Positions 119 through 20,255 of a DNA stretch of 28,473 nucleotides are shown piece by piece. A model generated the notes under the pieces. That model worked only from the letters and a program-made list of their open reading frames with translations. It made no database searches and was not told where the DNA came from. The stretch's first letter is position 1, and each line of letters opens with the position of its first letter. The translations under genes and the position numbers were made by a program. Source of the stretch: a virus; the UHGV virus genome UHGV-0135791. The stretch is one strand, 5' to 3'.

Positions 119-147
119 TTGCACGCTGAGATAGAATAGGCTACTAT
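119..147 (+). promoter_or_regulatory. sigma70-like early promoter, TTGCAC-N17-TACTAT
   Basis: -35 TTGCAC 119-124, 17-nt spacer, -10 TACTAT 142-147. The block AATAGGCTACTATTCA (135-150) recurs nearly identically in two minus-strand promoters. Confidence 0.45.
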
Positions 148-178
148 TCATTTACACGAACGAGAGGAGAGACAGAAG

Positions 179-3424: not shown

Positions 3425-3446
3425 ATCTATTTTCTGCAATGACTAG

Positions 3447-3475
3447 TTGACTATTACATTCGACCCTACTATATT
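3447..3475 (+). promoter_or_regulatory. sigma70-like promoter, TTGACT-N17-TATATT
   Basis: -35 TTGACT 3447-3452, 17-nt spacer, -10 TATATT 3470-3475; sits just after the terminator and before a run of small genes. Confidence 0.5.
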
Positions 3476-5329: not shown

Positions 5330-5353
5330 AAGCCCTCTACGGAGGGCTTTTCT
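5330..5353 (+). terminator. putative rho-independent terminator
   Basis: AAGCCCTC / GAGGGCTT stem with TACG loop, then TTTCT. Confidence 0.45.
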
Positions 5354-5387
5354 GTACATCCCACCTAATCCCCTTATATAATCCCTT

Positions 5388-5447: not shown

Positions 5448-5993
5448 ATGAAGCTGAAACTCAAGCAGCCATCACCAGAGGTGGTGAAAGCAGCACATGA
5501 AGAAGCTGTTAGCGCAAACCGTCGCCGAAAACGGCCGCGCGGTAAACAGAGCCTTTATCAATCATCCCGTAATTCCGCCGCGTTGTGGGACCCGGACTAT
5601 TGCGACGCGTTAATCGAGTTCTTCGACCGCACGTCGTGGGAGCTTGTGCCTACGTCTAAGGGTGACGAACGCCCACTGATTCAGGATAAACCCCCATCAC
5701 TGGCCCGCTTCGCCCTGCACATCGGCGTCACTATCCCGATTATTAAGCTGTGGCTGCGTGAGATTCCGGCGTTTGCCGAAGCCTATGAAACCGCTCAGGC
5801 GCTGGAAGAGGCCTATTTCACTGAGACGGGAGCGGCAGGTATCTCTGCTACGTTTGCTGCCGCTAAACTAGGCCTTAGCAAAGAGAAACCCGTTGAATCC
5901 ACCGAAGAGACAGCACCGACTGAGATTGTGTTCACCGTAGCAGAGCCTGTAGGTAAAATAGTAACAACGAACATGGGCGAGGTAGCGGAATGA
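5448..5993 (+). CDS. terminase small subunit (putative)
   Basis: ATG 5448 after AAGGGGA; HTH-like segment PSLARFALHIGVTIPIIKLWLREIPAFAEAYETAQ; stop overlaps the TerL start. Confidence 0.65.
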   Translation: MKLKLKQPSPEVVKAAHEEAVSANRRRKRPRGKQSLYQSSRNSAALWDPDYCDALIEFFDRTSWELVPTSKGDERPLIQDKPPSLARFALHIGVTIPIIKLWLREIPAFAEAYETAQALEEAYFTETGAAGISATFAAAKLGLSKEKPVESTEETAPTEIVFTVAEPVGKIVTTNMGEVAE

Positions 5994-8744: not shown

Positions 8745-8767
8745 AGCCCCGAAAGGGGCTTTCTTAT
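8745..8767 (+). terminator. rho-independent terminator after portal gene
   Basis: AGCCCC-GAAA-GGGGCT hairpin followed by TTCTTAT. Confidence 0.55.
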
Positions 8768-8803
8768 AGTATGCTATTAACTTTAGCGCCACAGGGTTTA
8801 TCT

Positions 8804-9847
8804 ATGAGCTTACTTACATCTCTGATCAGCCATCAGATATGGCTACAACGCACCGCATCCGGTGAAGTGAAAGACCTTGCGCCGTTCATTCAGGAGATGC
8901 GCGACGAAATCAAACGACAGGTGCTGTTGTTCGGCGACGACGGGAGAAGCACCGCGCGACTGAATAAACTGTTACGCGACCTCGAAGAAGCACTGACAGG
9001 GCTTACTGGTGGCTGGCAAACGAAGCTGACAGAAGACCTTAAGGAGCTGGCGGCGTATGAGGCTGAGTGGAATGTGAAGACACTCACGGCTAACGTTAAT
9101 GCGGAATTTGTCACTCCGACCGCTGAGCAGGTGTGGTCTGCCGCAGTGTTTCAACCGCTGGCGTTAAGCGACAAGCCCGTTGATTTCACGAAGCTGATGG
9201 AAGGCTGGGGCGAAACAGAAGTTGCTCGCCTTGTAACCGGCGTTAAGATGGGTTTCGTACAAGGACAAACCACACGGCAGATTGCTAAGAATGTGGTGGG
9301 TGCTGGTGGGCTGGCTGACATCTCTGAACGCAACGCCGCTACGGTAATCCGCACTGCATTATCCCATGTATCGAACGAAGCCCGTAACGAGACGTACCGC
9401 CAGAACGATGACATCATCGAGAAATACGAATGGGTATCAACGCTGGACAGCCGTACCAGCACGATTTGCAGAGCCAGAGACGGAATGACGTGGGAAATCG
9501 GTAAAGGGCCAATGCCTCCAGCCCATCCGAATTGTAGGTCGTGTACAGCGCCCGTAATCAGTTCAGAGTTCGACTTCCTCGATAAAGGAGCGAAACGTGC
9601 AGCTAAGGGCGCGGACGGCGGTACTCAGGTAAGCGCAGACACCACCTACTACGAGTTCCTGAAACAACAACCGGCATGGTTTCAGGATGAAGCACTCGGT
9701 CCTGTTCGCGGTAAGATTTTCCGCAACAGCGGTATATCGCCGGAAGAGTTTCGCGTAATATCTGTAGATGGTTTCGGGAATCCGCTCACGCTTAAGCAGA
9801 TGGCGGAACTCGATAAACGTGTTGCTGATTATCTGAAAGGGGAATAA
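8804..9847 (+). CDS. head morphogenesis protein, Mu F / SPP1 gp7-like
   Basis: Motif TSTICRARDGMTWEIGKGPMPPAHPNCRSC typical of the Mu F-like minor head protein family; start may be 8771 or 8804 in the same frame. Confidence 0.75.
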   Translation: MSLLTSLISHQIWLQRTASGEVKDLAPFIQEMRDEIKRQVLLFGDDGRSTARLNKLLRDLEEALTGLTGGWQTKLTEDLKELAAYEAEWNVKTLTANVNAEFVTPTAEQVWSAAVFQPLALSDKPVDFTKLMEGWGETEVARLVTGVKMGFVQGQTTRQIAKNVVGAGGLADISERNAATVIRTALSHVSNEARNETYRQNDDIIEKYEWVSTLDSRTSTICRARDGMTWEIGKGPMPPAHPNCRSCTAPVISSEFDFLDKGAKRAAKGADGGTQVSADTTYYEFLKQQPAWFQDEALGPVRGKIFRNSGISPEEFRVISVDGFGNPLTLKQMAELDKRVADYLKGE

Positions 9848-10311: not shown

Positions 10312-10342
10312 AAGGCCCCGTTATGGGGCCTTAGTTTTATTT
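10312..10342. terminator. bidirectional rho-independent terminator
   Basis: AAGGCCCC-GTTAT-GGGGCCTT hairpin with T-rich flanks on both strands, between convergent genes. Confidence 0.7.
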
Positions 10343-10858
10343 AAATCGCGCTGGCATTAGCACCATAAATGCAGTGTTTGAAAACGATATTTTGCATCCT
10401 CTGGTTTGGTCCTGGAAATCGAAACGAGCAATTTCATTTTTGTACGCCTTAGAAATCTTGTGCGCGTCTGCCAAGTAGGGCATGGCGAATCCTATGCTAT
10501 CAACTGCCCCCGGCGTGATGTGCGCCACACGTCGCCAGTCAGGAAATTTTCCGTCTACAACATCCACCGGAAGTGTACATATAAGCGCACAACTATCATC
10601 ATAGAAAGAAACACTGCTGATGTCATGGTCTACTTCCGCGTAGTTAAATTTAGAAGGCTCTCTCCCTTTTATGTCTATGAGAACCCCATTCTCAACGTTT
10701 GTCTTAACGTTGTCGCAGAACAATCTACGACCGTCCGTAGACACTATCAATCCTTCCGGGTCTATGTAAAAAGCATTAAAATAATAGCGCACATCATTTT
10801 TAGCTCTGCATATTTTTGCCCCTATATACGCAGGGAAAGTAATTACTGTAGTAACCAT
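10337..10858 (-). CDS. truncated DnaN (beta sliding clamp) homolog, domain II-like, 173 aa
   Basis: Segments [38 protein letters not shown] and C-terminal [11 protein letters not shown] parallel E. coli DnaN [45 protein letters not shown] and AAYVVMPMRL (from memory). Own promoter, GAGGAGGAG RBS, terminator; AT-rich relative to flanks. Confidence 0.55.
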   Translation of the reverse strand: [173 protein letters not shown]

Positions 10859-10886
10859 TTTAACTCCTCCTCGTTTCGATAACTGA

Positions 10887-10915
10887 ATAGTACCCTATTA
10901 TGTTGGTGTCTGCAA
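10887..10915 (-). promoter_or_regulatory. leftward sigma70-like promoter, TTGCAG-N17-TACTAT
   Basis: Read on the minus strand: TTGCAG acaccaacataataggg TACTAT tca; -10 region identical to promoters at 119-147 and 19703-19731. Confidence 0.5.
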
Positions 10916-10969: not shown

Positions 10970-10981
10970 CTATTCGAATAG
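10970..10981. promoter_or_regulatory. perfect 12-bp palindrome CTATTCGAATAG, candidate operator
   Basis: Abuts the -35 of a rightward promoter-like site; half-site GAATAG/CTATTC also occurs within the conserved promoter block. Confidence 0.35.
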
Positions 10982-11010
10982 TTGACTTTTCACTAAAAAT
11001 ATGCTAAGCT
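10982..11010 (+). promoter_or_regulatory. possible rightward promoter, TTGACT-N17-TAAGCT
   Basis: Good -35 but weak -10. Confidence 0.3.
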
Positions 11011-11234
11011 CCACCTGAGCTTGTGAAGTATGAACAAGCGACCGCGGCGCGGGCAGGTAACGGAGCGGGACGTAAGTCCTGAGTGTAGTTACGCTGACGC
11101 GTTCGGAAGGGCCATACTCTATTGCTTGTGTAAAAAGTAACTGGTTTACTGAGATTACGCCGTTTCTATGTTTAAATGATAAGAACTAGCGCCCCGCTTT
11201 ATGGCGGGGCTTTACTTATCGAGAAAGGAGAAAC

Positions 11235-18060: not shown

Positions 18061-18085
18061 AAGGCCCCTTTCGGGGCCTTTTCTT
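18061..18085. terminator. bidirectional rho-independent terminator
   Basis: AAGGCCCC-TTTC-GGGGCCTT hairpin followed by TTCTT; lies between convergent genes. Confidence 0.7.
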
Positions 18086-18314
18086 ACTCATCAATATTAC
18101 TCCTGTACTCCCGTAACTTCTCCAGGCTTTCGATTGCTTCTGCCAAGTCGGTTCCCGTGTCTTTGTGCCCGCGAAGGCCCATACACAATAGCTTCTTCAA
18201 CGCGTGCTGTAGCGCAGGGTCGCGTATATCGAAGGCGCGGAGAACATCGTAAACGTCTACTGTCATAGTGCTGCCGTGAATGTTTGTCATTGTGCGGTTG
18301 TATTTTGAAGTCAT
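18084..18314 (-). CDS. DUF3310-like small phage protein, 76 aa
   Basis: Motif PALQHALKKLLCMGLRGHKD...DLAEAIESLEKL matches the A.KYL.R.G.K...DL.KA..YL pattern recalled for DUF3310. Confidence 0.5.
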   Translation of the reverse strand: MTSKYNRTMTNIHGSTMTVDVYDVLRAFDIRDPALQHALKKLLCMGLRGHKDTGTDLAEAIESLEKLREYRSNIDE

Positions 18315-19441
18315 CCCAGCATCTCCGGTGAAATAGTTAAACGTGCGACCTCGCCGTATTCAGCGCTATAAGTAATTACGTTTGCACTACGGCCTGACAT
18401 CCATCCGCCGCGCGAGGCGTAGGCGTCTTTAGCCGCTAAGGTGCGGTGTTGCTCAACAACCATGTTACGGCTTTCTACAATCTTCTGGTGGTGCAGGTGA
18501 CCCACGTGGGCATAACTGTAGACACTCTCGCCGAACGCTTTACGGAACTTGGCAATCATTACTGGCTCAATAGCGTCGAATCGTGCTTTATGCCCGTGAT
18601 GGAAGAACAGTGTCGTTTTGCCGTGTTGCACCATCTTGTAAACATCCGGTGACGTATCGACAATCACTCGGCTGTCGTTTGAGTATAAAGTCGTGAACAT
18701 TTCCGCCAGCCATACAGACCCTACAGGGTCGTGGTTCCCCTGCACGATAAGCAAGCGAACGGTTTTATGTTTAACCAGCGCCATATCTACAACACGGCGG
18801 ACCATACGAATCATGTAGCGTACAAGTTTCTGATAGCGCGTGTCAGCGTCCAACACATGACGTGACTCAGGTGTAACCGCGTCCAGACTATCGAAGTGTG
18901 CGAAGTCGCCCAGCAGGTTAATAACTCCTGTCCCGGCATCCGGTGCTTTCTGGAATGCCGCATCGAACCAGCGGGAGAACAGGTCTTCCGCAATCTTCAT
19001 GTCCCAGTCGTCGCCGCTCTCGTCGGCCCATGCCAGCATACCGAGATGGAAATCGGATACCGTGTAAAGATTGAGTAGCTTGTCGTCGCGTTTAGCGCGA
19101 ACGGCTTTAACAGGTGCAACGGGTGTAATCTCTGACCTCATGCCTTCGATTACGGCTTTCATCAACTCTATCTGACGTTCGGCGTCAGTATCGGTCTTAA
19201 CCCATTGCAACTTAGTGTTGCCGAACTCGTCCACAAGTGACGACGTGCCTTTAATTTTGTAGCCGTCCGGGACAAGGTGGCTAACGTCGCGCCCGTGGCC
19301 TACGCCTTTCTTAGCCAGCTTCGCTTTACGGATGCGAATAACGCGGTCTGAGATGCCATATTTACGGGCTATATCGATAGTTTTAACTCCGGCGTTCAAT
19401 TCTTCCTGTAACTGTTCGTCGGTTATTTTCTTCCCGGCCAT
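18311..19441 (-). CDS. N-terminal HTH domain fused to a calcineurin/Mre11-like metallophosphoesterase, 376 aa
   Basis: HTH-like LNAGVKTIDIARKYGISDRVIRIRK; phosphoesterase motifs VSDFHLG, LLGDFAHFD, QGNHD, FHHGH and HVGHLHH in canonical order. Confidence 0.75.
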   Translation of the reverse strand: MAGKKITDEQLQEELNAGVKTIDIARKYGISDRVIRIRKAKLAKKGVGHGRDVSHLVPDGYKIKGTSSLVDEFGNTKLQWVKTDTDAERQIELMKAVIEGMRSEITPVAPVKAVRAKRDDKLLNLYTVSDFHLGMLAWADESGDDWDMKIAEDLFSRWFDAAFQKAPDAGTGVINLLGDFAHFDSLDAVTPESRHVLDADTRYQKLVRYMIRMVRRVVDMALVKHKTVRLLIVQGNHDPVGSVWLAEMFTTLYSNDSRVIVDTSPDVYKMVQHGKTTLFFHHGHKARFDAIEPVMIAKFRKAFGESVYSYAHVGHLHHQKIVESRNMVVEQHRTLAAKDAYASRGGWMSGRSANVITYSAEYGEVARLTISPEMLG

Positions 19442-19479
19442 GCTTACCTCCTCGTGTTTAGGATTTGTCCTATACTAGC

Positions 19480-19671
19480 TCACTTCTCTTTGACATTCGA
19501 GTTGCACGCCCAGATTAAGATAAATACCCACGGCAGCAGAATCCAACCAAGAAACAGATTGGCCATGAATATCGCCAGCTTTGCTTTATGGTTGCGGAAA
19601 TAGGCAACTAAAAAAGGCGTAAAGTACGCGAGCAGTGCAAACAGGATTAAGGAAACTGGTAAACTGGACAT
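19480..19671 (-). CDS. superinfection immunity (Imm-like) membrane protein, 63 aa
   Basis: Two TMDs with pattern FLVAYFRNHKAKLAIFMANLFLGWILLPWVFILIWA, resembling the Imm_superinfect family (from memory); first gene after the leftward promoter. Confidence 0.55.
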   Translation of the reverse strand: MSSLPVSLILFALLAYFTPFLVAYFRNHKAKLAIFMANLFLGWILLPWVFILIWACNSNVKEK

Positions 19672-19702
19672 TTTAAACCCCCTTCATTGTTGGTGTAAGT
19701 GA

Positions 19703-19731
19703 ATAGTACCCTATTATATTGGGGTGCGCAA
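19703..19731 (-). promoter_or_regulatory. leftward sigma70-like promoter, TTGCGC-N17-TACTAT
   Basis: Minus strand reads TTGCGC accccaatataataggg TACTAT tca; shares the AATAGGGTACTATTCA block. Confidence 0.5.
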
Positions 19732-19838
19732 GTAATGTGATAGAATAATTTTGCGCCTAGTGTCGCACACGAAAAGCGGGTGGTTCCCGCCTGGCGCAAC
19801 ACCATCAACCAGTAACCTCTTAACCAAAGGATTAAAGA

Positions 19839-20255
19839 ATGAAACTTTCTGATTTTTATTTCGAAGAGAAAGCACTGGTAGGTAAGAAGATGCCGATTCT
19901 CCTGCCGAATGGTGAAGACTCAGGGGAGTGGCTTAACGTTGTAAGCCCTGATGCGGATGCCGCCGTTAAAGCGGGGCGTGCTTTCATTATTGCGTACCGT
20001 CGCGGGTTGGCGCGTTTCGAAGAACTGGAAAAAGCCGCCAAAGAATCCGGCGACTATACTGAATATAACCTGGCTGTTAACGAGCTGGCGGAAGACCTCA
20101 ACCGGCAACTTGCAGCAGAAGTCGTAAACGGCTGGAGCTTTGATGAGCCTTTCTCTAAGGAAGCGTTTAACAAGTTGCTCGACCAGTTCAAGGCATTAGG
20201 CACACAGGTAGCCGCGTTCCATAACGCTGAGCGCAAAGCATTACAGGAAAAGTAG
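19839..20255 (+). CDS. tail assembly chaperone (lambda G-like)
   Basis: 138 aa acidic protein just upstream of the tape measure gene; ends ...CAG GAA AAG TAG with the -1 frame open from 20231. Confidence 0.6.
   Translation: MKLSDFYFEEKALVGKKMPILLPNGEDSGEWLNVVSPDADAAVKAGRAFIIAYRRGLARFEELEKAAKESGDYTEYNLAVNELAEDLNRQLAAEVVNGWSFDEPFSKEAFNKLLDQFKALGTQVAAFHNAERKALQEK

Follow-up and report, generated by a model that had tools for sequence, protein, structure and literature searches.

Promoter copies and the genes that follow them

The window, that is, the whole stretch of 28,473 nucleotides of viral DNA that was analyzed, belongs to a Kagunavirus-like siphophage (Guernseyvirinae) of E. coli, and the best matches to its first 12 kb, with ~88 to 91% nucleotide identity, included Kagunavirus phages such as fEg-Eco19, Ivi, and Ro145clw. 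A 16-nt block, AATAGG(C/G)TACTATTCA, described in an earlier note on this DNA, was read directly and exactly at 135 to 150 on the plus strand and at 10884 to 10899 and 19700 to 19715 on the minus strand. All three sites, designated P1, P2, and P3, carry TTGC at −35, as that note had stated, 16 nt upstream of the block, and a start codon follows 28 to 31 nt downstream of the block at each.

At P1, direct reading places the −35 element TTGCAC at 119 to 124 (+), followed after a 17-bp spacer by the −10 element TACTAT at 142 to 147 (+), with a predicted start ~7 nt downstream. The putative operator GAATAGGCTACTATTC (GAATAG-GCTA-CTATTC, 134 to 149), with the core AATAG-N4-CTATT at 135 to 148, overlaps the −10 and was unchanged in 29 unique orthologous promoters. 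A 28-nt leader with the Shine-Dalgarno sequence GAGGAG (151 to 181, +) leads to the ATG at 179 of the first gene (179 to 328, +), and the transcription unit, assumed in the earlier note to comprise early genes, extends into the holin/endolysin genes.

P2 and P3 drive short minus-strand cassettes within the plus-strand structural module. The −35 of P2, TTGCAG, lies at 10915 to 10910 (−) and its putative operator core, AATAGGGTACTATT, at 10899 to 10886 (−), including the −10 TACTAT at 10892 to 10887. The 173-aa gene downstream (10337 to 10858, −; ATG at 10858) matches a PHROGs DNA-metabolism family, its product is annotated as clamp-like in relatives, and the cassette (10312 to 10858, −) ends in a bidirectional terminator at 10312 to 10332. 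P3 has TTGCGC at 19731 to 19726 (−) and the same putative core, AATAGGGTACTATT, at 19715 to 19702 (−), including TACTAT at 19708 to 19703. Its cassette (18061 to 19671, −) comprises a superinfection-immunity gene (PF14373; 19480 to 19671, −; ATG at 19671), a DNA-repair-exonuclease-like gene (18311 to 19441, −), and a 76-aa gene (18084 to 18314, −), and ends in a bidirectional terminator at 18061 to 18080.

The 16-mer occurs in the window in three exact copies and in five with up to three mismatches, compared to 0.34 expected, and none of 100 shuffles gave five copies. The bare palindrome AATAGNNNNCTATT with at most one mismatch had six matches in the window compared to 0.65 expected. A plain sigma-70 consensus scan of the window missed P1, P2, and P3, because TTGCAC/TACTAT fit only 7 of the 12 consensus positions. 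The sites combine TTGCAC, TTGCAG, or TTGCGC with a 17-bp spacer and TACTAT, retaining TTG, A−11, and T−7, and on this sequence pattern they are taken to be real host-type (sigma-70) promoters.

Degenerate copies and a promoter lacking the palindrome

The count of three copies given in the earlier note proved too low: AATAG-N4-CTATT is present in ~10 promoters of complete relatives, and the window adds degenerate copies at 3440 to 3456, 8765 to 8778, and 10977 to 10990. The first of them, TGACTAGTTGACTATTA (3440 to 3456, +), lies over the −35 TTGACT (3447 to 3452) of the promoter TTGACT-17-TATATT (3440 to 3475, +; −10 at 3470 to 3475), directly past the endolysin terminator. In 23 unique orthologues this degenerate operator was invariant and the spacer variable.

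The perfect palindrome CTATTCGAATAG, which the earlier note had related to the promoter block, is present at 10970 to 10981. The 12-mer with up to two mismatches is not above chance, with at least one match in 59 of 100 shuffles, so that it is not significant alone and its significance comes from context and conservation only. It belongs to a plus-strand site at 10970 to 11010 (CTATTC, GAATAG-TTGA-CTTTTC) that consists of CTATTCGAATAG plus a one-mismatch operator, GAATAGTTGACTTTTC (10977 to 10990), over the −35 TTGACT at 10982 to 10987, with the extended −10 TGCTAAGCT (11002 to 11010, +) 17 bp past TTGACT. CTATTCGAATAG is thus the left arm of the 10977 to 10990 site together with one extra inverted half-site. 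The 10970 to 11010 site was invariant in 23 unique orthologues, and the paralogous promoter of Ivi (L078, 43215) is without the GAATAG arm.

The region from 10982 to 11234 (+), just ahead of the spanin and capsid genes, consists of this promoter (TTGACT-17-TGCTAAGCT), a noncoding leader (~190 nt) that is conserved, and a terminator at 11191 to 11210. Copies of the leader were located as a paralogue in Ivi (43215 to 43475) and as an orthologue in L080 (~5700 to 5940), and the second copy per genome precedes a small-gene cluster. RNAalifold predicted stems, of which five show compensatory changes, and two boxes, TTCGGAAGGGCC and CTATTG, were invariant. An Rfam search with the leader (10982 to 11210) gave no match; in its arrangement the region is reminiscent of lambda PR'-6S-tR' or HK022 put.

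The third degenerate copy, the palindrome TATAGTATGCTATT at 8765 to 8778, lies directly past the portal-gene terminator, is conserved across relatives, and appears in the PHIRE list of phage Golestan as well. No convincing −35/−10 pair was found around it, and it contains an ATG annotated in relatives as the start of a head-morphogenesis gene. Between 5330 and 5408, just ahead of the small terminase gene, a terminator, AAGCCCTCTACGGAGGGCTTTTCT, is followed by the promoter TGTACA-18-TATAAT (5353 to 5382), which is likely a late promoter. Since this terminase promoter is without the palindrome, the palindrome marks a subset of the promoters and not all of them.

Promoter family in related genomes

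IMG/VR was scanned for the exact 16-mer, and the contigs recovered were mostly of complete size (41 to 45 kb) with a few shorter fragments. The 84 copies found were distributed over 77 loci in ~35 contigs. Among 87 exact copies, all but two chance hits were in the right orientation and were followed, after 28 to 31 nt, by a start codon preceded by a Shine-Dalgarno sequence. The promoter-like nature claimed for the block is borne out by these ~80 correctly oriented instances from ~35 related genomes. The motif search across relatives proposed with the earlier note located the block in 117 phage records, and the refuting condition stated there, a block missing from the homologous promoters of related phages, was not borne out. 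A scan of IMG/VR for TGAATAGNNNNCTATTAT gave single chance matches in unrelated contigs; contigs with several copies were all Kagunavirus-like, and no new lineage was found.

According to their flanks, the promoters with the palindrome over the −10 (type I, TTGCAC-17-TACTAT) were divided into class I-A, corresponding to P1; class I-B, corresponding to P3; class I-C, corresponding to P2; class I-D, for a second cassette adjoining I-C; and class I-E, preceding small genes that lie upstream of P1. Every class combines the palindrome and TACTAT with a TTGCA at constant distance and a short leader. The strong conservation of the class I-B upstream flank is explained by an int-alpA RNA motif (RF02996) located there. 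In the window it was detected at 19750 to 19814 (+), scoring 36.7 bits (gathering score, 35.8), in the gap that separates P3 from the plus-strand tail-assembly-chaperone-like gene at 19839. An alternative −10 just upstream (TATAAT/TAGAAT, over the left arm) was rejected, because no consistent −35 accompanies it, whereas the distance between TTGCA and the palindrome is constant at 16 nt throughout the type I classes. A reverse-strand promoter at the type I sites (TATATT past the palindrome) was discarded as well, having neither a −35 nor a gene in that direction.

In two further registers the same palindrome is combined with other promoter elements. Type II promoters (TTGACA-17/18-TATAGT) carry it within the spacer, which is not read base-specifically by sigma-70, with the final T of CTATT serving as the first T of the −10, and in relatives they agree with 11 of the 12 consensus positions. 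In type III promoters, degenerate or one-mismatch copies lie over the −35, as in the window at 3440 to 3456 and 10970 to 10992. The complete genome of Ivi has the palindrome in five type I promoters and in three near-consensus type II promoters of the minus-strand replication module (TTGACA/TTGACG, 17 to 18 bp, TATAGT). AATAG-N4-CTATT is the commonest palindrome with 5-bp arms in Ivi (seven perfect copies, the next one having three), in fBC-Eco01 (seven), and in Jerseyvirus SETP7 (five), whereas by our own arithmetic ~0.04 copies of its 10 specified bases are expected by chance in 45 kb. A MerR-type operator was rejected, since it needs the palindrome in a spacer of 19 to 20 bp and the type II spacers measure 17 to 18 bp.

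In relatives, a perfect palindrome, CAATAGGTTACTATTTGG, without a −35 was also found 160 to 370 bp upstream of P1 (L012, ~5480 to 5560; L057, ~8860 to 8940; L185, 39798), at a position that would fall just left of position 1 of the window. It is preceded by a direct repeat, GGTGTAACAGGT, and followed downstream by a hairpin, GCTGCTACACAGCAGC. This copy may be an orphan operator or a looping partner, and from ~158 bp upstream it might loop to P1.

Conservation footprint

The view of the earlier note that conservation exceeds what sigma-70 needs, and that the inverted repeat is the conserved unit, is upheld by arms that stay fixed in three registers while adjoining spacer bases vary. In the regulator-divergent promoter, the 2- to 3-nt linker between TTGACA and the palindrome varies in both sequence and length (AG, CG, TG, ACA, ACG, CCA, TAA, and TCA), and TGAATAG-N4-CTATTATAGT is fixed. 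The type III promoter combines a variable spacer with an invariant operator, and the ssb promoter showed no conservation upstream of the −35. The central N4 differs by promoter class (GGTA, GCTA, GATA, TTAG, TTCG, CGAA, and TTGA) and the arms are constant, with an outer base that distinguishes GAATAG of Kagunavirus from TAATAG of Jerseyvirus.

Cornellvirus promoters keep −35 and −10 without the palindrome. In Cornellvirus VSiP, the orthologous ssb promoter has both elements intact and a decayed left arm, from which it follows that the arms are not needed by the polymerase, and the VSiP genome contains no AATAG-N4-CTATT at all. A search of VSiP for a replacement operator by palindrome counts, k-mer repeats, intergenic 6-mer enrichment, and half-site pairing gave no clear family, yielding only two ATATTA-N6-TAATAT sites and ACTAAT-rich spacers. 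The two sites lie at −10/+1 (L082, ~7673 and 14868), replacing AATAG-N4-CTATT in promoters that drive two minus-strand genes or cassettes inside the structural module.

These observations bear on the simplest competing explanation, in which the sites are plain host promoters needing no extra factor, recent duplicates of one cassette selected for strength, with an incidental palindrome. Classes I-B to I-E have nearly the entire −35 to +1 stretch in common, so that promoter duplication accounts for some of the conservation; the genomes compared are mostly those of close relatives (~88 to 91% nucleotide identity in the best matches over the first 12 kb), which weakens the within-class footprints; and the type I right arm overlaps the −10. 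Duplication leaves unexplained the same palindrome in the unrelated promoter backgrounds and other registers of types II and III, the left arm fixed beside hypervariable linker bases, class I-A with a different spacer and the same arms, and the Cornellvirus promoters that do without the palindrome. This explanation is therefore considered unlikely.

A role in gene exchange was also weighed. The first gene past the class I-A promoter occurs in ~15 different forms among relatives, and the promoter and 5' untranslated region are conserved up to the ATG, which suggests that the promoter acts as a mosaic junction; varied genes also follow classes I-C and I-D. The conserved promoter and leader could thus be mainly a homology patch for swapping gene cassettes, as in T4, with regulation secondary. 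The two-fold symmetric core and the three registers remain unexplained by such a patch, and the palindrome is also present in spacers of replication-gene promoters whose downstream genes are constant. As the main function it is improbable, and it is compatible with an operator and not a replacement for it.

Candidate binding proteins

Two small proteins, the 434-Cro-like gp71 of 71 aa and the Xis-like gp75 of 60 aa, are the candidate binders suggested by sequence, each a tentative choice to which we give less than an even chance. Both are encoded outside the window, and the evidence on them comes from relatives only.

The gp71 gene (Ivi, 39892 to 40107) encodes an HTH_3 protein whose closest solved relative in the PDB is 434 Cro (71 aa, E value of 2e-6, full length). 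Among the records examined, the homologue nearest to it from outside the subfamily is 44% identical, occupies the cro position in the temperate phage RothD, and adjoins 434-type ACAA-N6-TTGT sites. HannyBb and RothD, both temperate lambdoid phages, were rejected as relatives and were used solely to locate the gp71 homologue at cro. A pair of palindromes, 45 bp apart, flanks the gp71 gene of Ivi, a perfect one in the spacer of the divergent promoter and a second one, AATATGGTACTATT, over the −10 of the promoter of gp71 itself. The mismatch in AATATGGTACTATT creates an extended −10 (TGGTACTAT) in this promoter, which is without a −35. A gp71 at least 90% identical is present in 117 phage records, the same number as for the P1 block. 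Two observations count against gp71. Between Kagunavirus and Jerseyvirus it is only 48 to 49% identical, with SQGAINQL compared to SQSLITHL in the recognition helix, despite an unchanged palindrome core, and Cornellvirus, which is without the palindrome, has an orthologue.

The gp75 gene (Ivi, 42928 to 43110; HTH_17/Xis-like) has the distribution of the palindrome, occurring in Kagunavirus and Jerseyvirus, whose versions are 82% identical, and not in Cornellvirus VSiP. EC3-1 has a 70% identical variant with the recognition helix VSTMTLNRW in place of VTRQTINNW, and its genome keeps eight perfect palindromes. Besides this variant, it counts against gp75 that its own promoter is without a site and that its fold family does not typically form a symmetric dimer. 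A few other small proteins match the distribution of gp75, e.g., the 63-aa gp58, for which no domain match was found.

Neither gp71 nor gp75 fits cleanly, and the motif is the same in phages of E. coli and Salmonella despite the ~50% difference in the Cro-like candidate. This would suit a transcription factor or nucleoid protein common to both hosts that binds the site and ties the promoters to host physiology. No E. coli regulator that recognizes AATAG-N4-CTATT is known to us, which counts against a host factor, as does Cornellvirus, a Salmonella phage like Jerseyvirus that is without the motif, and such a binder seems very improbable.

Earlier reports and expression data

The motif was previously listed by PHIRE in the genome papers of three relatives under the labels "phage promoter" or "regulatory element." Seven "phage RNAP promoters" with the consensus tgAATAGTa-ccTATTat-T, the reverse complement of the 16-nt block, were given for fBC-Eco01 (PMC9825357), seven sites, e.g., TAATAGGGTACTATTCATTA and variants, for VB_EcoS-Golestan, and the motif TAATAGTACCCTATTATGTT for SGP-C. 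These "phage promoter" motifs of the Kagunavirus/Jerseyvirus papers are the same sequence as the block in the window. In contrast to the present analysis, they form a bare list without a palindrome or operator reading, registers, a candidate binder, or a mechanism; what is new here is to read the motif as an operator, to distinguish its three registers, to note its loss in Cornellvirus, and to name two candidates.

The PHIRE-based label for fBC-Eco01 (PMC9825357), by which the sites would serve a phage-encoded RNA polymerase, is effectively refuted, since the annotations of Ivi and fBC-Eco01 include no RNA polymerase gene, every coding sequence of more than 250 aa has a structural or replication assignment, and the element is symmetric, occurs in several registers, and accompanies sigma-70-like −35/−10 elements at 17 to 18 bp. 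The label is thus an unsupported and wrong assignment, and the "phage-specific recognition element" of the earlier note is not supported in the sense of a site for a phage RNA polymerase or sigma factor. An N4-type hairpin promoter was dismissed too, there being no giant virion polymerase gene.

Public time-course RNA-seq data of the Kagunavirus vB_Eco_K1B4 are available under PRJNA939978 and PRJCA028359. In the RNA-seq time course of this phage, the HTH gene K1B4_008 was among four genes peaking by 30 min, and the immunity gene (Imm) belonged to the late class (PMC12645636). Judging from gene order, K1B4_008 is probably the gp71 orthologue. The latent period of 30 min makes the temporal classes coarse, and at this resolution the operator-bearing units were not seen moving together (PMC12645636), which neither supports nor refutes the co-regulation that had been proposed for them.

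Proposed operator and mechanism

From the anatomy of the sites, their registers, the conservation footprint, and the genus distribution, we infer binding and repression by a small phage protein. AATAG-N4-CTATT is read, with somewhat better than even confidence, as a 14-bp operator for a small phage HTH protein embedded in host-type promoters. Of the two meanings offered by the earlier note, "operator" is the better reading, given the palindrome in three registers and the fixed arms beside variable spacer bases. Since every site overlaps a core promoter element, the binder would most likely be a repressor. Considered as a whole, sigma-70 promoters with an embedded operator and a dimeric phage HTH repressor probably provide the best explanation.

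In the proposed mechanism, the host RNA polymerase would read P1, P2, and P3 (TTGCAC, 17 bp, TACTAT), each of which has a putative two-fold symmetric 14-bp operator across its −10. Most non-structural promoters in Kagunavirus and Jerseyvirus genomes carry the same putative operator, which overlies the −10 or the −35 or falls in the spacer. Bound there as a dimer, a small helix-turn-helix protein of the phage would block RNA polymerase and turn down together the P1 small-gene/lysis unit, both minus-strand cassettes, the genes for replication, and its own gene. Perfect sites would be filled first and imperfect sites, i.e., those in the regulator's own promoter and the two over a −35, later; the terminase promoter has no site.

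A more far-reaching possibility, which we regard as doubtful, is that the timing circuit of a virulent siphophage consists entirely of one small HTH protein and ~10 operators of graded quality in three registers. Perfect sites of early, replication, and accessory cassettes would then shut first, imperfect sites of the regulator's own and the pre-structural-gene promoters later, and the terminase promoter never.

The operator reading corrects an annotation now mislabelled "phage polymerase promoter" in genome papers, narrows the binder to two testable proteins, and provides a simple model for the ordering of transcription in a phage without its own polymerase. Phages of both genera, Kagunavirus and Jerseyvirus, are widely isolated with therapy or biocontrol in view, and the operator-bearing promoters offer compact, repressible promoter parts.

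Comparison with known systems

The closest likeness is to the Cro/CI operators of 434 (and lambda/P22), which, as here, include a 14-bp two-fold symmetric site overlapping a core promoter. 434 Cro binds 14-bp palindromes as a dimer and has the same length as the candidate gp71 (71 aa, HTH_3), and the layout in the relatives, with the gp71 gene between two sites, is Cro-like. The half-site differs, being AATAG with a 4-bp center compared to ACAA with a 6-bp center in the 434 type, and ~10 dispersed single operators stand in contrast to the two triple clusters of 434, lambda, and P22. Neither a partner repressor nor an integrase gene was found in the annotated Kagunavirus/Jerseyvirus records examined; one paper calls a relative temperate.

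In bacteriophage P1 with its C1 protein and mycobacteriophage L5 with its gp71 stoperators, a short site is repeated genome-wide and one protein controls many units. The Kagunavirus sites would follow the same dispersed-operator principle. The P1 C1 and L5 sites are asymmetric and serve lysogeny repressors, those of L5 acting within transcribed regions, whereas those of Kagunavirus are symmetric and form part of core promoters. The PeSL of T4 are mobile early-promoter-stem-loop cassettes, and their likeness to the present family is that a conserved promoter segment borders variable small genes, here the first genes of classes I-A, I-C, and I-D; unlike T4 PeSL, the type I promoters showed no associated stem-loop module. 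On the operator reading, the feature is a known kind of system and not a new class of mechanism, belonging with Cro and its operators and with the dispersed operator regulons.
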